Source: an uncultured Gammaproteobacteria bacterium
Lineage (GTDB): Bacteria; Patescibacteriota; Patescibacteriia; SG8-24; DYFX01
Assembly (NCBI GenBank): GCA_964532415.1
Contig: CAZHHN010000004.1
Coordinates: forward strand, 1-59,815
Length of the DNA: 59,815 bases
Direction of reading: 5' to 3'
This document shows, piece by piece, positions 5,954-21,488 of this stretch (its first letter is position 1; each line of letters starts with the position of its first letter). The translations under genes were made by a program, and so were the position numbers. The notes under the pieces are model-generated. The model worked only from the letters and a program-made list of their open reading frames with translations. It searched no databases and was not told the origin of the DNA.

Positions 5954-7489
5954 ATGACCCTCGAGCCCGTCATCGGCCTGGAAATCCACGTCCAGCTCAA
6001 AACCGCATCGAAAATGTTCTGCGGCTGCGACAACCGCGCCGAGGACGCGCCGCCCAACACCGCCGTCTGCCCGGTCTGCATGGGCCATCCGGGCACGCTG
6101 CCGGTCGCCAACCGGCAGGCGGTCGGGTTCGGCGTGCTGGCATCGCTGGCGCTCGGCTGCCGCATCACTCCGCAGTCGAAGTTCGACCGGAAAAACTATT
6201 TCTATCCCGACCTGCCGAAGGGCTACCAGATTTCGCAGTTCGACCGGCCGGTCGGCACAGGCGGCCGCATCACGCTGGAGAACCCTTTCGCCGCCGATGG
6301 CGAACGGAAAACGTTCACGATCGGCATCACGCGCCTGCATCTCGAAGAGGACGCCGCCAAACTGCAGCACGCCGGCGACGGCCAGTCCTCGCTGGTGGAT
6401 TTCAACCGGGCCGGCACGCCGCTGGCGGAAATCGTGACTGAACCCGATTTCGCTTCCCCGTCCGAAGCCAAGGCCTTCCTGCAGGAACTCCGGCTGATCA
6501 TGCGCACGCTCGGCGTCTCGGACGCCGATATGGAAAAGGGCCATCTGCGCTGCGACGCCAACGTCAGCCTGCGCCAGGTCATCGACGATCCGGCCATCGA
6601 AACGGAATCGGTCGCGCGCTTCAATCCCAAAACCGAAATCAAGAATCTCAATTCTTTCAAGTCCGCCGAGCGCGCGCTGGAATACGAAATCCTGCGCCAG
6701 ACGAAGCTCTGGGAAGCGGGCGCGCCGCCGATGCAGACGACGACGCGGGGCTGGGACGACGGGCGACAGATCACGGTCGAGCAGCGCGTGAAGGAAGACT
6801 CGGCCGACTACCGCTATTTCCCGGAACCGGATCTGCCACCGCTCGAACTCGCCGGGATCGAGATGGCCGTCCGCCAGAAGATGCCGGAACTGCCCGAAGC
6901 CAGGCGCGCCCGCTTCCGTGAGGAGTACGCCTTCTCCCCCGCCGACGCCAAGCAGATCGTCGAGAATCCCTTTCTGGCCGGCTGGGTCGAACGGGTGATG
7001 TCCGAGCTGCGCGAATGGCTCGCCGCGACGGGTGAAAAGGAGGCCTGGGACGCCCACAAGCCGAAGTTCGCAAAATTGGTTTCCGGCTGGCTGCTCTCCA
7101 AGATGTTCGGCCTGATGGCCGAGATGGGCGCCGACATCCGCATCGCCAAGGTCACGCCCGAAAACTTCGCAGAATTCCTGACGCTGCTGCATCTCGGCAG
7201 GATCAACAGCACCGCCGCGCAGGAAGTGCTGCGTGCCATGCTCGAATCCGGACAGGATCCCTCGCAGATCGTGGACGAGCGCGGACTCGAGCAGGTGTCG
7301 GACGTGGGCGACCTGGAACTGGCCTGCGACAACGCCATCCTGGCGAACGGCAAAGTCGTCGCCGACTACAAAGCCGGCAGGCAAGCTGCTATTATGTTCT
7401 TGGTAGGCCAAGTCATGCGGGAAACCAAAGGCAAGGCCAAACCGGAGCTGGTCCGGGAAATCCTCGAGGCGAAATTGGGAAAACTTTAA
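5954..7489 (+). CDS. gatB: Asp-tRNA(Asn)/Glu-tRNA(Gln) amidotransferase subunit B
   Basis: N-terminus EPVIGLEIHVQLKTASKMFCGC and DFNRAGTPLAEIVTEPD are typical GatB. 511 aa. Confidence 0.95.
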   Translation: MTLEPVIGLEIHVQLKTASKMFCGCDNRAEDAPPNTAVCPVCMGHPGTLPVANRQAVGFGVLASLALGCRITPQSKFDRKNYFYPDLPKGYQISQFDRPVGTGGRITLENPFAADGERKTFTIGITRLHLEEDAAKLQHAGDGQSSLVDFNRAGTPLAEIVTEPDFASPSEAKAFLQELRLIMRTLGVSDADMEKGHLRCDANVSLRQVIDDPAIETESVARFNPKTEIKNLNSFKSAERALEYEILRQTKLWEAGAPPMQTTTRGWDDGRQITVEQRVKEDSADYRYFPEPDLPPLELAGIEMAVRQKMPELPEARRARFREEYAFSPADAKQIVENPFLAGWVERVMSELREWLAATGEKEAWDAHKPKFAKLVSGWLLSKMFGLMAEMGADIRIAKVTPENFAEFLTLLHLGRINSTAAQEVLRAMLESGQDPSQIVDERGLEQVSDVGDLELACDNAILANGKVVADYKAGRQAAIMFLVGQVMRETKGKAKPELVREILEAKLGKL

Positions 7490-15443: not shown

Positions 15444-18400
15444 TTATGCAGCCGGCTGCAGGACCCTGACGTTCCCCATCCCGACGTGTTTCTCGATGGC
15501 GGAAACGGCGTCGGCGGACGGATCGATCAGAAAGGACGTCTCGACGCGCTGCACGCCGCCTTCGGCGCGGACGTCGAGCGCCACCAACGCGCGACCGGGA
15601 AATTTGGCCAGGGTCGATTTCAGCGCCGCGACGGCGGACGGCGGCATTCGGGACGGCAGGCTGACGCGCACTTCCCCGGCGGTGGCGCGCGCCTTGGGCC
15701 GCTGCATCTGGAGCATCATCTCGGAACTGACTTCTTCGCCGCTGAAATGCTTCTTGTACACGGGGATGGTTTCGTCGGTCAGCGCCCAGCCGCGGTCGGC
15801 CAGGATCTTGGGTTCGTCGTCCTTGCGCGAAATTTTTCCGGTCACCGCCAGATTGGCGCCTTCGACCCAGACCGAGCCGTTCTCCTTGAAGACGCTCGGG
15901 AAAACCAGGCACTCGGCCGTGCCGCTCTGGTCGGTGATGGTGGCGAAGAGCATCGGCTCGCCGGTTTTTTTTGTGGTGATCTGCTTGACGGCCGTGACGG
16001 TGCCGCCGACCCTGACCGGCGCGCGTTCCTGAAAGGCCAGCGCTTTCGAAAGCGGCGTGAGCAATTCGCCGAATTGTTTGGAGACTTCCTCGAACGGGTG
16101 CGCGCTGACGTACAGGCCGAGCAGATCCTTTTCCCAGGCGAGCTTCTGCCGGCGCGTGGCCGGCGGAACGTTCCGCAACCCCAGCATCGGCACGAGTTCG
16201 GTGCCGGCCGGCACGACGAAGGCGAACAGGTTGGACTGCCCGTTCTCCCGTTCCCTGGCCATGTTCTTATTGTAGGTCGTGAGCACGTCGAGATTCTCGG
16301 CGATGCGGTTGCGGTCCTCGAAGGCGTCGAGCGCGCCGGACTTGGCCAGGCATTCGAGCGATTTCTTGTTGAAGGCCTTGCCGGAGATGCGGCCGGCGAA
16401 ATCGGCCAGGTCCCTGAAGGCGCCGCTCTGCCTGCGCTCGTCGATGATCGCCTTGACCGTATCGTCGCCCAGGCCCTTGATGGTGCCGAGTCCGAAGCGG
16501 ATGTGCGCGTCGTCAATATAGGTGAAGCCGGCCTCGGAGCTGTTCACGTCCGGGGGCAGCACTTCGATTCCCATCGTCCCGCACTCCTTGACCGCCAGCG
16601 CGACCGTGTCGAGATCGCCGGACTCGGCCGTCATGAGGGCCGTCATGTATTCGGCCGGGAAGTTGGCCTTCATGTAGGCGGTCTGGTACGCGACGATCGC
16701 ATAGGACGCGGCGTGCGCCTTGTTGAAGCCGTAGGCGGCGAACGGCTTGATCAATTCCCACAGCTCTTCGGCCTTGGCCTTAATCATGCCGTGCGCGACC
16801 ACGCCTTCCTTGAACTTGATCTCCTGCTTGGCCATTTCCTCCGGAATCTTCTTGCCCATGGCCTTGCGGAACTTGTCAGCCTCCAGCCAGTCGTAGCCCG
16901 CCAGGTTGATGGCGGTCAAGAGCACGTCGTCCTGATAGACCAGCATGCCGTACGACATCTGGAGATAGTCCTTCATGCGCGGATCGAGGTAGGCGATCAG
17001 CCGCGGATTGTGCTTGCGCTTGATGAAGTCCGGAATGATTTCGATCGGGCCCGGACGGTAGAGCGCCACCATGGCCATGATGTCTTCCAGCACCGTCGGC
17101 TTGAGCTGCATCAGGTACTTGGTCATGCCGTCGCCGTTCAGCTGAAAGAGGCCCATGGTTTTGCCGGCCGCCAGCATCTCGAAGGTCTTCCTGTCGTCGC
17201 GCTTCATGTGCACCAGGTCGATCTCGACGCCTTTGGTTTTACGGGCCAGCTCGATGGCGTATTCCAAAATCGAAAGGTTGCGGATGCCGAGGAAGTCCAT
17301 CTTGAGGACGCCGGCCGCCTCGACCGAGTTCATCTCGTACTGCGTGATGATCGCCTCGCCCCCGGATTCGCGCTGCAGCGGCGTGTATTCGACCAGCGGC
17401 TTGTCGGAAATCACAACGCCGGCGGCGTGCACCGAGCAGTGGCGCGCGTTGCCCTCGATCTGCCTGGCCAGCCCGATCAGGCGGCGCACTTCCGGCTCGC
17501 GGTCGTAGCGCGCTTTCAGCTCTGGCGTTTCCTTGAGCGCGCGGTCGATCGTCATGGCGAAGCCCTGCGAACCCATCGGGATCTGCTTGGCGAGCTGGTC
17601 GCAAAAGGCGATCGGATAGCCCAAAGCGCGGCCGGTGTCGCGCACCGAAGCGCGCGCCGCCATCGTTCCGAAGGTGCAAATCTGGGCGACGCGGTCAACG
17701 CCGTACTTGCCTTTCACGTACTCCAGCACCTCGCCGCGCCGGTGGTCGGCGAAGTCCATGTCGATATCGGGCGCGGAGGGACGCAGCGGGTTCAGGAAGC
17801 GTTCGAACGGCAGGTTGAAATCCAGCGGATTGACGGTCACGATGCCGATCGAGAAGGCCATCAGCGAGCCGGCCGCCGAGCCTCTGGTCGTCGAGATGAT
17901 CCCCTGCCCGCGCGCCCAGGAAGCGTAGTCGGCGACCACCAGGAAGTAGGTGGCGTAGCCTTTCTTCTCGACGATGTCCAGCTCATACGCCAAACGGTCG
18001 AGTTCGACTTGGTTCAGTTCGCGCTTCAGAAGCTGCGGCAGCCTCTCGTAGGAAATTTTTTTCAAATAGTCGATGGGCGTCAGGCCGTCGGGGATCTCGT
18101 AGATCGGAAAGTTCCATTTGCCGAGTTCGAGCTTCACGTCGCAGCGCTCGGCGATTTTGGCGTTGTTCTCGAGCGCCTCGGGGAGATCCCTGAAGGCTTC
18201 CTCGACTTCCCCGGGCGCGGACATCGAAAGGTCGTAGTCGGCGGTGACGGAGCGCTCGCGATCCTCGAGCGTGCGGTTGTCCTTGATGCAGAGCAGCAGA
18301 TTGCGCGCTTCGGATTCTTCTTCCTTCAGGTAGTAGACGTTGCGCGAAGCGACCACGCCGATGCCGAGTTCCCTGCCGAGCGCCACGAAGGCGTCGTTGG

Positions 18401-18959
18401 TTTCCTTCTGCGTCGGGTTGTCGGGCTGATGATCCAGCTCGAAGAAGAAATTATCCGCGCCCAAGATGCCGAGATATTCCCTGGCGCGCTCGCGGGCTTT
18501 TTCGACGTCGCCGTCCTTCAGCCACCTGCCGATGTCGCTGCGCGCGCCGGAGAGCGCGATCAGTCCCCCGCCGTGCTGGCGGAGCAAGTTGCGGTCGATG
18601 CGTGGGCGGTAGTAGAAGCCGTCGAGATACGCGACCGAAGCGAGCTTCATCAGGTTCTTGTAGCCCTGCATGTTCTCGGCCAGGAGCACCAGGCGCGTGT
18701 TCTTGTCGTCAACGCGGTGGCGCTTGAGATCGATGGTGTCGACCGCCACGAAGGCGTCGTAGCCGTAGATCGGCTTGATCTCGGACTTGGCGCACTCCTG
18801 CGCGAACTCGATCATGCCAAACATGTTGCCGTTGTCCGTCATGGCCAGCGCCGTCGCTCCCTGCGACTTGGCGAACTTCACCAATTTGTCCACCTGCGGC
18901 AAAGCCTCCAATAAGGAGTAGTGGCTATGGGTATGGAGGTGGGTGAAGCGGGGGGACAT
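15444..18959 (-). CDS. dnaE: DNA polymerase III subunit alpha
   Basis: Start taken at ATG 18959 (MSPRFTHLHTHSHYSLLEA, PHP domain). A TTG at 18986 is an alternative start. About 1171 aa with a conserved polymerase core. Confidence 0.95.
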   Translation of the reverse strand: MSPRFTHLHTHSHYSLLEALPQVDKLVKFAKSQGATALAMTDNGNMFGMIEFAQECAKSEIKPIYGYDAFVAVDTIDLKRHRVDDKNTRLVLLAENMQGYKNLMKLASVAYLDGFYYRPRIDRNLLRQHGGGLIALSGARSDIGRWLKDGDVEKARERAREYLGILGADNFFFELDHQPDNPTQKETNDAFVALGRELGIGVVASRNVYYLKEEESEARNLLLCIKDNRTLEDRERSVTADYDLSMSAPGEVEEAFRDLPEALENNAKIAERCDVKLELGKWNFPIYEIPDGLTPIDYLKKISYERLPQLLKRELNQVELDRLAYELDIVEKKGYATYFLVVADYASWARGQGIISTTRGSAAGSLMAFSIGIVTVNPLDFNLPFERFLNPLRPSAPDIDMDFADHRRGEVLEYVKGKYGVDRVAQICTFGTMAARASVRDTGRALGYPIAFCDQLAKQIPMGSQGFAMTIDRALKETPELKARYDREPEVRRLIGLARQIEGNARHCSVHAAGVVISDKPLVEYTPLQRESGGEAIITQYEMNSVEAAGVLKMDFLGIRNLSILEYAIELARKTKGVEIDLVHMKRDDRKTFEMLAAGKTMGLFQLNGDGMTKYLMQLKPTVLEDIMAMVALYRPGPIEIIPDFIKRKHNPRLIAYLDPRMKDYLQMSYGMLVYQDDVLLTAINLAGYDWLEADKFRKAMGKKIPEEMAKQEIKFKEGVVAHGMIKAKAEELWELIKPFAAYGFNKAHAASYAIVAYQTAYMKANFPAEYMTALMTAESGDLDTVALAVKECGTMGIEVLPPDVNSSEAGFTYIDDAHIRFGLGTIKGLGDDTVKAIIDERRQSGAFRDLADFAGRISGKAFNKKSLECLAKSGALDAFEDRNRIAENLDVLTTYNKNMARERENGQSNLFAFVVPAGTELVPMLGLRNVPPATRRQKLAWEKDLLGLYVSAHPFEEVSKQFGELLTPLSKALAFQERAPVRVGGTVTAVKQITTKKTGEPMLFATITDQSGTAECLVFPSVFKENGSVWVEGANLAVTGKISRKDDEPKILADRGWALTDETIPVYKKHFSGEEVSSEMMLQMQRPKARATAGEVRVSLPSRMPPSAVAALKSTLAKFPGRALVALDVRAEGGVQRVETSFLIDPSADAVSAIEKHVGMGNVRVLQPAA

Positions 18960-19006
18960 ATCAACAGTGTACCCGATATAACTCAAAGAGTAGGGGGCGA
19001 GGGCAA

Positions 19007-19846
19007 TTAAGGTGTTGAGATGGTGCCGCCGCCGGAAATCGTGCCCGTACCAGTAATGGAAGGTCCATTTCTACCCAGCTGTATAGTTCCTTGATTGAGG
19101 TTAATAGTTGGCATTCCATCAGATATGATTTTCAAATTTTTCTCCTGTGTATCTACCTGTAAAAAGGTATTAACAAATTCGCAGTTACTAAAAGTGGTCT
19201 GTTTTATGGCTCCATCGAATAGAATTCGAGCAGGCTCCAAAAGGAAGTTTTGACCTTTAAACCAAAGATTCCCGAATAGATCAACAGGTGATTTACGTGC
19301 ATCAACCTGTATTCCAATTTCACCCTTTTTGTATCTTAACTTAAGAAAATTGAGCGTAAACGAGATATCCCAAGCCAAATAATCACCGGATACCCATTCA
19401 TTGTCGATTATTTCTAGCGCTTTCCTATCCAGTTCATCATATAACCTTATGGATAAACTCAGACTACCTCCTGCATTTACCCTTAACGAAACGATAACTT
19501 CGTCATCAATTTTTAAAATCGCACCTTGTCTTTTAAATGTATTTCCACCGAGCCTAATGACCGGCACATCTTGAGGGATATGAAGATACCCTTCAACTTT
19601 ATTTGTTTGTTTGTTAACTGGGCTAGATTTTATTTCTCGTTGCTTATTTTCCTTGATAACTCTTATTTCAGTATGATGCGTGGGGCAAAGACACATCATA
19701 TCTTCTGGTCGATTATGGTGTTCTCGTTCCCAAGGAATAATATGGTGGTATTCAATAATTGGAATCCCGCATTTACAACAACCAAAACCAGCCTCTTGTC
19801 TGAGGATTAATTTTACATCTGATGGAATCTGTGGTCTGGTGCGCAT
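19007..19846 (-). CDS. HNH endonuclease with an unrecognised ~200-aa C-terminal domain, in an AT-rich cassette
   Basis: The N-terminus carries the HNH signature CCKCG...EYHHIIPW...HN...LCPTHH. The gene is far lower in GC than its flanks. Confidence 0.75.
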   Translation of the reverse strand: MRTRPQIPSDVKLILRQEAGFGCCKCGIPIIEYHHIIPWEREHHNRPEDMMCLCPTHHTEIRVIKENKQREIKSSPVNKQTNKVEGYLHIPQDVPVIRLGGNTFKRQGAILKIDDEVIVSLRVNAGGSLSLSIRLYDELDRKALEIIDNEWVSGDYLAWDISFTLNFLKLRYKKGEIGIQVDARKSPVDLFGNLWFKGQNFLLEPARILFDGAIKQTTFSNCEFVNTFLQVDTQEKNLKIISDGMPTINLNQGTIQLGRNGPSITGTGTISGGGTISTP

Positions 19847-19865
19847 CTCTATGCCTAGAGAAACA

Positions 19866-20006
19866 TTATTGCTGCTCCTGAATCATCTCTCTTCCACATT
19901 GTGAACACCTTGGCGCATCTCCTATCAATACACCAATAAGTAACCTTTCGTGATTTTGTGGACAAACCCATGAAGTCGGTCTTCCCGGATTAATTTGAAT
20001 CCCCAT
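19866..20006 (-). CDS. Possible 46-aa zinc-ribbon-like mini-protein
   Basis: Hand-translated as MGIQINPGRPTSWVCPQNHERLLIGVLIGDAPRCSQCGREMIQEQQ (CxxxH...CxxC). It ends 19 nt upstream of the HNH start, on the same strand and with the same AT-rich composition. No clear SD. Confidence 0.3.
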   Translation of the reverse strand: MGIQINPGRPTSWVCPQNHERLLIGVLIGDAPRCSQCGREMIQEQQ

Positions 20007-20180
20007 AGATTAAAAGCTGTCTGATTGCTTAGTGCAGCGTCGTTAGTTGTCCGATCTTACTGGATTTCAGGCGAACACGTAAACCCTTTCTTTTCAAGGG
20101 TTTGGCTGGGGATCAAAAAGACCATCTTTTGAGGCTTTGACGCGGCAAAATGCCCTTGGTTAGGCCGGCGGCCTGTTCAT

Positions 20181-20621
20181 CTATCTCACCACCCTGAACG
20201 AATCCGTCACCGAAAAAATCGCTTTGGCATCATATCGGCGCCAGTGATCGGTATTGAGGCGCTCGATGAGAATGAGGGTACCGGAGGCGGAAACGCGATC
20301 GCCGACCTTGTGGGGCGCGGGAGCTTCCGACATCAGGTTGAAATTGAGGGCATAGTTGGCGCCATCGTCGGCATGGAGGCCAGGAACGCATTCCTCGGCG
20401 GGCGGGTAGTCGGGCGCGGGCGGGAGACAGACGATCGTGCCGGAGAGGACGGCGCGTTGGGGTTGGTAGGCGGCGGGCGGGGTTGCGGTCGGCGGGGCGG
20501 ACGGAGTAAAGAGCGAGGAGCGGCCGCTCAGCCAGACGAGGAGCGGCAGGCCGAAAAAGAGAAGCAGCACCGTGGCGGCGCCGGACCAGTCTTCGGTTTT
20601 CCAGTCCTTGAAGGGTTTCAC
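20181..20621 (-). CDS. Hypothetical membrane-anchored protein
   Basis: Start moved to GTG 20621 (VKPFKDWKTEDW..., TM ATVLLLFFGLPLLVWL). The longer ORF would run through a strong hairpin and a tRNA-like gene. Confidence 0.5.
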   Translation of the reverse strand: MKPFKDWKTEDWSGAATVLLLFFGLPLLVWLSGRSSLFTPSAPPTATPPAAYQPQRAVLSGTIVCLPPAPDYPPAEECVPGLHADDGANYALNFNLMSEAPAPHKVGDRVSASGTLILIERLNTDHWRRYDAKAIFSVTDSFRVVR

Positions 20622-20635
20622 GGTTCCAGTGTAAA

Positions 20636-20663
20636 CGAAAACTCCCCCTTCGGGGAGTTTTCG
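20636..20663 (-). terminator. Strong hairpin with U-tract (terminator or leader element)
   Basis: 12-bp stem CGAAAACTCCCC / GGGGAGTTTTCG with a 4-nt loop. On the minus strand it is followed by TTTTCGTTT. Confidence 0.5.
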
Positions 20664-20738
20664 TCGGCTTTCGCCAAGCGGCCAGACTTGATACTGACGT
20701 AATGCTACGCCCTTCACCGCAAGTTTGTCAATCTGCGG

Positions 20739-20810
20739 TGGTGGACCGCCGGGGACTCGAACCCCAAGGCCAGGATTATCAGGTCCGTCTGCCGCCTCGG
20801 CTGACGGCCC
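20739..20810 (-). ncRNA. tRNA-like element (acceptor helix, T-arm and CCA; no canonical anticodon arm)
   Basis: Minus-strand RNA: GGGCCGU CA GCC-GAGGC-GGC A GACGGACCUGAUAAUCCUGGCCU UGGGG-UUCGAGU-CCCCG GCGGUCC A CCA. The acceptor helix has 7 bp with G3:U70. No 5-bp/7-nt anticodon stem-loop can be drawn. Confidence 0.5.
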
Positions 20811-20873
20811 ACGTCGGGGTCCTAACAAAGGCATGGTTTTTCACGCAGTCTGATGGGTTTTCGGACCATTTCC

Positions 20874-21488
20874 TCAGGCTCCGACCGTGCCCGTCTTCAA
20901 CTCCCCGGCCGGTTCGTACGTCCCGATCAGCACGCCGCTCGCCGAGACCTTGGAATCAACCATCTTCCAGCTGCGCGGCAGCGTTCCTTCGGCGAACAGC
21001 CGCTTCCCTTGCCCAATCGTCACCGGAAACGTCCAGATATGCATCCGGTCCACCAGCTCATTCTTGAGCAGCACCTGAATCAGGTTGCCGCTCCCGTGCA
21101 CCCACAAGTCCGGCGCGTCCATCGTCTTGAGCCTTTTGATCTCCGTCACCACGTCGCCGCTGATACATTCCGTATTCGCCCAGCTTGGCGTGAACGCCCC
21201 ATGCGACACAACGTACTTCTTGTTGGCATTGAACGGCGCCGCCACTTCCTGGTCGTTTTGGGCCGTCGGCCAGTACGAGGCGAAAATATCGTACGTCACC
21301 CGTCCGAGCAGCAGCTCGAACGGCATGTGCATGAAGTCGTTCATCATCTTGCCCATCATCTCATCCCATTCCTGATGTGCCATCCAGCCGCCGTATTCGA
21401 AACCTCCCGACGTGTCCTCCGCGGGCCCGCCGGGCGCCTGCATGACGCCATCGAGGGTGACGAAGGTCGTGGTAATGATCCTGCGCAT
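20874..21488 (-). CDS. Dihydrofolate reductase family protein (RibD C-terminal domain type)
   Basis: MRRIITTTFVTLDGVMQAPGGP...LLLGRVTYDIFASYWP...LWVHGSGNL is typical of the YyaP/RibD_C family. Confidence 0.8.
   Translation of the reverse strand: MRRIITTTFVTLDGVMQAPGGPAEDTSGGFEYGGWMAHQEWDEMMGKMMNDFMHMPFELLLGRVTYDIFASYWPTAQNDQEVAAPFNANKKYVVSHGAFTPSWANTECISGDVVTEIKRLKTMDAPDLWVHGSGNLIQVLLKNELVDRMHIWTFPVTIGQGKRLFAEGTLPRSWKMVDSKVSASGVLIGTYEPAGELKTGTVGA

Follow-up and report, generated by a model that had tools for sequence, protein, structure and literature searches.

A 72-nt gene for a tRNA-shaped RNA that carries the marks of an alanine acceptor and lacks a canonical anticodon arm raises the question of what such an RNA is for. 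The gene is on the minus strand of a 59,815-nt window, by which we mean the whole stretch of DNA analysed, from a member of the Patescibacteriota (contig CAZHHN010000004.1 of assembly GCA_964532415.1). Based on the comparisons reported here, we suggest, with moderate confidence, that the element represents one copy of a module of two RNAs, a non-decoding tRNA mimic of alanine identity and a co-evolving, private antisense RNA that masks the mimic. The two-RNA unit is apparently undescribed. Full-text literature searches returned no description of such a tRNA-like RNA in Patescibacteria, the candidate phyla radiation (CPR) or Parcubacteria or together with an antisense RNA, and no Rfam family matches the module.

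The tRNA-like RNA and its family

An earlier, sequence-only reading of the element had described a 7-bp acceptor helix with G3:U70, A73 and an encoded CCA, a textbook T-arm and a mini D hairpin with a GG dinucleotide, and the minus-strand sequence that it gave is correct letter for letter. The acceptor helix is GGGCCGU/GCGGUCC, the T-arm is UGGGG-UUCGAGU-CCCCG, and the D hairpin, GCC-GAGGC-GGC, has 3 bp and carries the GG in its loop. The lack of a canonical anticodon arm was also borne out: the sole pairing in this region is GGA/UCC around CCUGAUAA, an arm with a 5-bp stem and a 7-nt loop does not form, and the cloverleaf lies 7.7 kcal/mol above the minimum-energy fold of the RNA. As a single sequence, the fold is unremarkable (z-score -1.1). 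Of the tRNA searches that had been proposed as a check, those with ARAGORN and Rfam gave no standard call. ARAGORN run over the window reports only tRNA-Arg(GCG) and tRNA-Ser(GCU) and leaves the element uncalled, Rfam at gathering thresholds returns the same two tRNAs in the window and nothing at 20739-20810, and the tRNA model RF00005 (cut-off 29 bits) does not match the element at gathering or at E<=10. In a permissive Rfam search (E<=10), the best match at the element is tRNA-Sec at 18 bits, below its cut-off of 47, and the second is mascRNA at 17.9 bits. The 5-bp anticodon stem, the 7-nt loop and the score above 29 bits of a canonical tRNA are all missing. By contrast, the features recognized by alanyl-tRNA synthetase (AlaRS) are all present, i.e. 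G3:U70 in a 7-bp helix, A73, G2:C71 and the 3' CCA. G2:C71, G3:U70 and A73 are the established acceptor-end identity set of this enzyme.

To place the element in a family, a covariance model was built from 13 copies and rebuilt from 33, leading to 48 distinct elements. Two sets were analysed, R1 with 27 distinct copies from within the genus and R2 with 48 distinct copies from many families. The R1 and R2 models score the window copy at 62.1 and 56.1 bits, respectively, while genuine tRNAs of the genus reach at most 42 bits with R2. Orthologs of the window copy in three genomes (G011, G007 and G008) are 81-86% identical to it. Covariation in homologues, another check that had been proposed, is present: in the R2 set it amounts to 0.58 versus 0.16 in shuffled alignments and at most 0.14 for slid partners, and in the R1 set to 0.44 versus 0.15 in shuffles, with 93% of structure cells paired in both sets. 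G3:U70 is found in 27/27 copies of R1, and G1:C72, G2:C71, G3:U70 and A73 are invariant in 48/48 copies of R2. In these 48 copies, the acceptor helix is 100% paired and the T-stem 98%; pairs 4:69 to 7:66 vary with compensation, and pair 6:67, for instance, is GC in 19 copies, CG in 18, UA in 7 and UG in 4. The T-loop UUCRA is fixed, the GG-containing D loop is kept, and CCA is encoded in ~28 of the 48 copies. The window copy has the same invariant positions, covarying remainder, canonical T-loop and variable arm.

The arm at the anticodon position has a stem of 5-7 bp, usually 6 bp, that is 82-84% paired with compensatory changes, and a loop of 8-10 nt with the loose, anticodon-loop-like motif Y-U-U-G-N-C-A. 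In the copies from the genus, the arm stem has 6 bp and is often bulged, the D arm is reduced to a 3-5-bp hairpin, and the "anticodon" triplet differs between close orthologs (GCA versus GCU). Together, the change of triplet between orthologs, the truncated D arm and the over-long stem argue against decoding in the genus. The UUCRA T-loop and the D-loop GG, which the L shape needs, are kept in the tRNA-shaped RNA together with the complete AlaRS acceptor-end set, while its arm evolves freely. Judged by structure and score, the family grades from near-tRNA to mimic: five distant relatives (L103, L105, L107, L112 and L113) form good cloverleaves that score 38-53 bits with the Rfam tRNA model and that ARAGORN calls tRNA-Ser(tga). 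These five carry G3:U70, they have no long variable arm, and a C would stand at position 37.

The acceptor helix of the element is near-identical to that of the tRNA-Ala(GGC) of the genome (GGGCCGU...ACGGUCC-ACCA), and both RNAs have the same T-loop and the same GG in the D loop; a tRNA-Ala is the likely ancestor. Unlike tRNA-Ala, the tRNA-like RNA has no alanine anticodon, its D arm is truncated, its non-standard arm is hypervariable, and it has a dedicated complementary small RNA. Among the origins offered by the sequence-only reading, an alanine-chargeable RNA with a non-decoding role is the best fit, given the AlaRS set in all copies and the drifting triplet. A mistranslating tRNA is unlikely here, and less so for the near-canonical relatives. 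A decayed tRNA at an integration site does not describe the family, given its promoters, covariation and wide conservation, and describes in part the window copy, the arm of which has drifted from both its stem and its partner. For the family, we rejected an integration scar or a decayed ordinary tRNA on the basis of the covariation, the invariant identity elements and the promoters. At two other loci (L059 in G024 and L098 in G070), a genuine tRNA-Ala gene is followed by a partial duplicate of its 3' half, from the T-arm to the CCA; these duplicates look like classic integration scars, unlike the 72-nt element.

The partner RNA and its complementarity to the arm

The tRNA-like gene is followed by a promoter-like element, P2, that abuts its CCA end and by a second, predicted small RNA that ends in an intrinsic terminator (Table 1). 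This promoter-plus-terminator unit had been noted separately on the same window; what the earlier reading missed is that the 5' end, or seed, of the partner RNA is complementary to the arm of the tRNA-like RNA. P2 has 10/12 consensus matches versus 0.1 expected in shuffles, and its hexamers TTGACA and TAnnnT are kept across the genus copies while the spacers vary. P1, the promoter-like element of the tRNA-like RNA, is identified by its match to the promoter consensus only, to which P2 is closer than P1. The P1 layout, TTGCGT/TTGCAT-N17/18-TGCTAGGAC with ~8 nt to G1, precedes nearly all genus copies, again with varying spacers.

Table 1. Coordinates of the predicted parts of the two-RNA module in the window.
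Feature	Position	Strand	Description
P1, promoter-like element of the tRNA-like RNA	20819..20848	-	CTGCGT (20848-20843), 18-nt spacer, extended -10 TGT-TAGGAC (20827-20819); ends 8 nt before G1
tRNA-like RNA, 72 nt	20739..20810	-	Acceptor helix 1-7/66-72, G3:U70, A73, CCA, D hairpin, degenerate anticodon-type arm, canonical T-arm
Arm segment CGGACCUGAUA, positions 24-34 of the tRNA-like RNA	20777..20787	-	Complement of the partner seed, interrupted by one C·A mismatch; includes one G·U pair
P2, promoter-like element abutting the CCA end	20702..20731	-	TTGACA, 18 nt, TAGCAT
Partner small RNA, ~60 nt	20633..20696	-	5' seed, GAAA hairpin, intrinsic terminator; putative start placed from P2
Seed of the partner RNA, UAUCAAGUCUG	20693-20683	-	5' end of the small RNA
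Hairpin with GAAA tetraloop in the partner RNA	20677-20664	-	
Intrinsic terminator of the partner RNA	stem 20663-20636 plus U-tract	-	12-bp stem

The seed is complementary to the loop and the 5' strand of the anticodon-type arm, and both segments change together among copies. Cognate arms and seeds are, for instance, CCAGACCTGCAAT with ATTGCAGGTCTGG, GGCCAGACCTGCTAT with ATAGCAGGTCTGGCC, GGCCGGACTTACCAT with ATGGTAAGTCCGGC, CCGAAATCGCCAT with ATGGCGATTTCGG, and AAACCTGGTTAGCCAC with GTGGCTAGCCAGGTTT; the complementary sequence itself differs from copy to copy, as in CUGCAAU/AUUGCAG versus CUGCUAU/AUAGCAG. A contiguous cognate complement of 11-18 nt is present in 26 of the 27 distinct genus copies. 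Over the 27 copies, the energy gained by cofolding has a median of -14.8 kcal/mol for cognate pairs versus -1.8 kcal/mol for non-cognate pairs. Within genomes that have several copies, cognate pairs gain -11 to -27 kcal/mol and most non-cognate combinations stay above -8 kcal/mol; the arm/partner pairs in one genome are largely orthogonal.

Two observations tell how these segments interact. Read on the promoter/terminator strand, the interior mismatches of the genus copies comprise 10 G·U and 1 A·C. This asymmetry supports pairing at the RNA level, because a repeat maintained at the DNA level would give both types equally. Moreover, the order of the two genes is not fixed: at L097, the partner is on the opposite strand and convergent with the tRNA-like gene, with which it shares a bidirectional terminator, and at L102, L106 and L112-L114 the partner has a promoter and a terminator of its own and is encoded upstream of the mimic. 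With these alternative gene orders, neither one folded transcript nor an invertible segment of DNA can serve as a general explanation. Thus, arm and partner are complementary at the RNA level and the two linked small genes co-evolve, and the arrangement of the sequences indicates that the RNA-RNA pairing occurs in trans.

Little of the partner RNA other than the seed is under visible constraint. Among the orthologous loci, the alignment shows conservation of the partner RNA through the terminator in G001, G007, G008 and G011, with divergence starting right after it. Across the family, only the seed complementarity is conserved; the hairpin that separates seed from terminator varies or is missing. 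Because the small RNA conserves nothing besides its seed, we read it as a private antisense RNA. A genome search for third-party targets of the seeds, with 12-mers and one mismatch allowed, gave chance-level scatter only, and real tRNA-Ile and tRNA-Gly match seeds over the 6-8-nt loop only. The partner RNA appears to be dedicated to the tRNA-like RNA and does not look like an effector with targets of its own. The terminator is generic in this genome, in that the same ACTCCCCGAAAGGGGAGTTTT hairpin ends ordinary genes, and a module-specific, protein-binding function of this hairpin was rejected for this reason. A near-identical terminator, AAAACTCCCCGAAAGGGGAGTTTT, often followed by GTTTACAC or GGTACACTG, is found next to unrelated genes at C1:598, C2:55790, C4:29369, C7:15187 and C15:24349 as well as at 20636-20663 in the window, and these copies suggest a repeated terminator element in the genome.

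In the window, the adjacent RNA with its P2-type promoter and terminator is present and its 5' end is complementary to the arm, but this complementarity is the weakest in the family. The arm has five substitutions relative to the three orthologs, while the seed is unchanged from that in G007. The arm stem contains an A·G mismatch and the pairing of the arm with the seed a C·A mismatch, and the arm-seed duplex, with 11 pairs including one G·U and interrupted by the one C·A, is the weakest of the 27 genus copies. In the orthologs, arm and seed pair without mismatch over 15-17 nt, and the cofold gain is -16 to -17 kcal/mol compared with -6.6 kcal/mol in the window. We conclude that the window copy is probably a weakened, possibly decaying member of the family with a drifted arm. 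A stronger version, in which this copy is decaying or non-functional outright, i.e. a pseudogene of the module and not of an ordinary tRNA, we consider rather unlikely. This version could account for the weak cognate pairing, for the mismatched arm stem and unfavourable cloverleaf, given that the ortholog in G007 does fold into the cloverleaf, and for the lowest model score within the ortholog group. Against it, both promoters and the terminator are intact, as are the acceptor helix, the D hairpin, the T-arm and the CCA; moreover, eleven pairs with one mismatch can still form, and nearest-neighbour energies leave out tertiary contacts and modifications. In the orthologous tRNA-like gene of G001, P1 is lost and the 5' acceptor strand is broken, while the complementary small RNA is intact.

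Proposed mechanism and competing explanations

In the mechanism that we propose for the masked mimic, the first RNA would be charged with alanine and would not act as a decoder. The single-stranded 5' tail of the second RNA would dock on the anticodon-like U-turn loop and then invade the stem, and this pairing would open the arm, extending in some relatives into part of the D arm. Opening of the arm might mask or inactivate the mimic or expose the duplex to RNase III, an rnc homolog of which is encoded in the genome, as is a CCA-adding enzyme family protein. With P2 as the better promoter, and with P1 transcripts that in this gene order would carry their own antisense, the mimic would be mostly masked. 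Activities that may be gated in this way are the occupation of tRNA-binding machinery, the donation of alanine outside decoding and the action of an RNA toxin; alternatively, the free mimic might be a tmRNA-like decoy or rescuer or take part in regulated mistranslation. For an alanine donor, a link to FemAB-type proteins would be conjectural only. The genome does encode a FemAB-family homolog (aminoacyl-tRNA-dependent peptidoglycan bridge; C16:~6683-7309, minus strand) adjoining tRNA-Arg(CCG); an alanine-tailing partner of the RqcH/NFACT type was not found in the genome. It is possible, and we propose this only tentatively, that the module represents a new riboregulatory class in which an alanylatable tRNA mimic is gated by a private antisense RNA and serves as an all-RNA toxin-antitoxin system or as a switchable alanine carrier or decoy of the ribosome machinery.

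Several points weigh against a masked, non-decoding mimic. The promoters, the start sites and the charging are all predictions, and masking of a mimic and an obligate two-piece RNA predict identical covariation; the argument for a free, closed state comes solely from the compensated pairing of the intramolecular arm stem (82-84%). The five near-canonical relatives are cloverleaves for which decoding is possible. In the window itself, the gain of -6.6 kcal/mol is weak when compared with a non-cognate median of -4.2 kcal/mol, the cloverleaf is not the predicted minimum-energy fold, and the copy may be inactive. Finally, the analysis identified neither a partner protein nor a target process.

Among known systems, loop/5'-tail antisense pairs (IS10 RNA-IN/RNA-OUT, hok/sok and other type I toxin-antitoxin RNAs) and RNA-toxin systems (type VIII, e.g. 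CreTA) have several traits in common with the module, namely linked small RNAs with extended complementarity, a U-turn-type loop that meets a free 5' end, rapid co-evolution, multiple orthogonal copies and a patchy distribution. In contrast to all of these, both RNAs of the module are usually on the same strand, i.e. trans-encoded, there is no evident toxin open reading frame (ORF), and one partner is an AlaRS-marked tRNA mimic. In the TMERs of MHV68 and in MALAT1-mascRNA, too, a tRNA-like fold is directly attached to another small RNA, and tRNA enzymes probably carry out the processing; however, these RNAs are eukaryotic or viral, and their tRNA-like portion is neither aminoacylated nor complementary to the adjoining RNA.

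A special case of the masked mimic is an all-RNA toxin-antitoxin or addiction module, in which the free, charged mimic would be harmful, for instance because it takes up EF-Tu, AlaRS, the ribosome or the rescue machinery, and would be neutralised by an antisense RNA made from the stronger promoter. The closed co-evolution of two partners, the orthogonal pairs in one genome, the 0-6 copies among species of one genus with patchy occurrence across the phylum, and the position of P2 nearer to the promoter consensus are as expected for such a module, and decay appears to strike the tRNA-like side first, both in G001 and in the drifted arm of the window copy. However, the window copy is syntenic in four species and so does not look mobile, and the retention of at least one copy in 12/13 genomes of the genus also fits a useful function. 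Of the hallmarks of toxin-antitoxin systems, the data show antisense pairing and a patchy multi-copy distribution only, and we regard this special case as unlikely. Under regulated mistranslation, the element would be a true decoding tRNA that puts alanine at codons not meant for it and is regulated by the small RNA; this has a natural counterpart in the mistranslating tRNA-ProX family of Streptomyces. The resemblance of the loop motif to an anticodon loop and the five near-canonical relatives with G3:U70 and tRNA-Ser(tga) calls are in its favour. In the genus, the bulged, over-long arm with its large loop and the reduced D arm speak against it, and a triplet that changes between close orthologs is not expected of a selected decoder; in addition, the near-canonical forms would have a C at position 37, and the genome already has tRNA-Ile(GAU) and three tRNA-Ala. 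Decoding of this kind is, in our judgement, improbable.

The nearest published RNAs are the tag-less tmRNAs of ~65 nt in a 2025 tmRNA database paper (PMC11915505). Forms without a coding sequence (CDS), which are known from jakobid mitochondria, some plastids and mycobacteriophage DS6A, are likewise small, non-decoding mimics of alanine identity of ~65-75 nt; the DS6A form inhibits tmRNA in E. coli, and the bacterial group 9FT-COMBO-53-11 may have tmRNA without a tag frame (PMC11915505). The tRNA-like RNA could thus be a tag-less relative of tmRNA reduced to the tRNA-like domain, acting with SmpB on stalled ribosomes or in competition with tmRNA, with the intermolecular helix in place of tmRNA helix 2. 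G3:U70, A73 and the T-arm are common to both, and a paralog on contig C5 is the best sub-threshold match to the tmRNA model RF00023 in the genome. However, the 29.7 bits of this paralog are below the cut-off of 47 and near the scores of ordinary tRNAs (tRNA-Lys, 26 bits), the window copy is absent from the RF00023 matches, and the pseudoknots and the tag frame with resume and stop codons of that family have no counterpart in the 72-nt element. The acceptor helix matches tRNA-Ala, and the element still has two parts that are missing from tmRNA, namely a D hairpin and an arm of the anticodon type. A tag ORF in the partner RNA was also looked for, and there is no stop codon before the terminator and no conserved frame. 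The genome has a standard tmRNA (C3:3765-4176, 85 bits) adjoining smpB, which led us to reject tmRNA itself. To our knowledge, no tmRNA has a private antisense RNA. We consider kinship with tag-less tmRNA improbable. Even less probable, to the point of being nearly negligible, is that the locus forms one cis-acting leader, i.e. a T-box-like element or attenuator for the gene behind the terminator, or a DNA inverted repeat such as an invertible promoter. A start codon is often 14-18 nt past the terminator in the genus (16 nt in the window; IleRS and ArfB genes at two loci), and P2 lies between the two complementary segments. T-box RNAs (RF00230) resemble the partner RNA in that they pair with a tRNA-shaped RNA at its anticodon region; in the genus, a terminator follows in the module as well. 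By contrast, the pairing extends over 11-18 nt and not over a codon, the tRNA is private, and there is no Stem I platform, no NCCA-pairing T-box and no antiterminator. Rfam gave no RF00230 match in 20650-20900 at E<=10, and by eye no UGGU box and no alternative terminator helix were found, nor an antiterminator or a UGGN box for the ACCA end in partner-RNA sequences. The downstream genes are unrelated and are sometimes replaced by another promoter or a convergent gene, and for this reason, together with the other gene orders, a T-box or attenuator of the downstream gene was rejected. With the partner upstream or on the other strand, the DNA repeats are direct and not inverted, and this geometry and the asymmetry between G·U and A·C led to the rejection of an invertible promoter or DNA inverted repeat.

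Distribution, genomic setting and significance

The two-RNA module is widespread but patchy in Patescibacteria. It is present in 12/13 genomes of the genus with 1-6 copies each, and the complete, single-contig genome G002 has none. In the sister family, 0/24 genomes have the module and the best hits that we examined are all genuine tRNA-Ala, tRNA-Glu or tRNA-Arg. Beyond these, confirmed modules were found in at least 21 other genomes of the class sample and in at least 6 genomes from other classes of the phylum. Viral contigs scanned for the pattern T-arm-CCA-TTGACA gave 0 hits.

The assembly (1.12 Mb, 62% GC, 99% complete) encodes 45 ordinary tRNAs, among them Ile(GAU), Ile(UAU) and Ala(UGC, CGC, GGC). 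The separate tRNA-Ile(GAU) and tRNA-Ala set that the sequence-only reading had asked about is, therefore, complete, and we rejected a divergent copy of a missing tRNA. With these tRNAs and a tmRNA in the genome, the element does not stand in for a missing RNA of either kind. A side observation concerns AUA codons: tRNA-Ile(UAU) is at C14:26023-26097 and the genome has only two CAU tRNAs, which is why AUA is probably read by the UAU anticodon and not by a lysidine-modified CAU tRNA. The same genome has a second, intact copy of the module on the minus strand of contig C5 (C5:40696-40766, equal to L032:1501-1571), just downstream of the groEL terminator, with the loop CUUGCCAG, the partner seed CUGGCAAGGUC and a pairing energy of -18.5 kcal/mol.

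The surroundings of the window copy are as the earlier reading had stated, i.e. between an AT-rich cassette side (39% GC at 19001-20000 versus ~62% elsewhere) and an accessory gene block (RibD_C/YdeI/HI0933/RecQ, upstream of the element). The window copy is syntenic in G007, G008 and G011, with a YdeI/RibD_C or DUF1801 gene upstream, dnaE downstream and variable cassettes between. The genes behind the modules are unrelated and encode, for instance, an alkyltransferase-like protein, RibD_C, ArfB and IleRS, and in the window a 146-aa membrane-anchored protein. Among 61 ORFs flanking 21 copies of other families, no Pfam family is common beyond one matched by 2 ORFs. The 146-aa ORF (20184-20621, minus strand), which has a GTG start 16 nt after the module terminator, a hydrophobic segment at its N terminus and a linker rich in proline, matches no Pfam family, and the orthologous loci do not have it at this site. 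A 279-aa ORF that is AT-rich and matches HNH_2 weakly (19007-19846, minus strand; E 5.6e-4) lies between dnaE (15444-18986) and the module region and looks like a recently acquired cassette. A conserved hairpin motif, AAACCCTTG...GGGTTTACGTGTTCGCCT, occurs at ~20069-20110 (minus strand) and also at L056, L085 and L086, and is found downstream of modules in several genomes. In G008 it is ~700 nt upstream of the dnaE PHP domain, while in the window the HNH cassette separates the motif from dnaE; the motif may mark a cassette boundary or belong to a leader of dnaE. A palindromic motif, CCCTTTGGTACCAGGTACCGATA, is found near a TTGACC promoter-like site downstream of modules at L003, L028 and L085 (G011 and G004) and has no copy in the genome of the window.

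For the annotation of CPR genomes, relatives of the tRNA-like RNA are now called tRNA-Ser(UGA), "tRNA-Asp" and so on, or may appear among the tag-less entries of the tmRNA database; tallies of tRNA genes should leave them out, and they should not be taken as evidence of recoding. Orthogonal, compact RNA-RNA pairs on a tRNA scaffold could also serve synthetic biology. The AlaRS marks are frozen in 48/48 copies while the features of a decoder drift, which implies selection for alanylation, or at least for AlaRS binding, outside decoding. The genomes of the ultra-small CPR bacteria are ~1 Mb in size and very little is known about their regulation. Up to six two-RNA units per genome represent a large investment, and point to a process that touches tRNA and the translation machinery.

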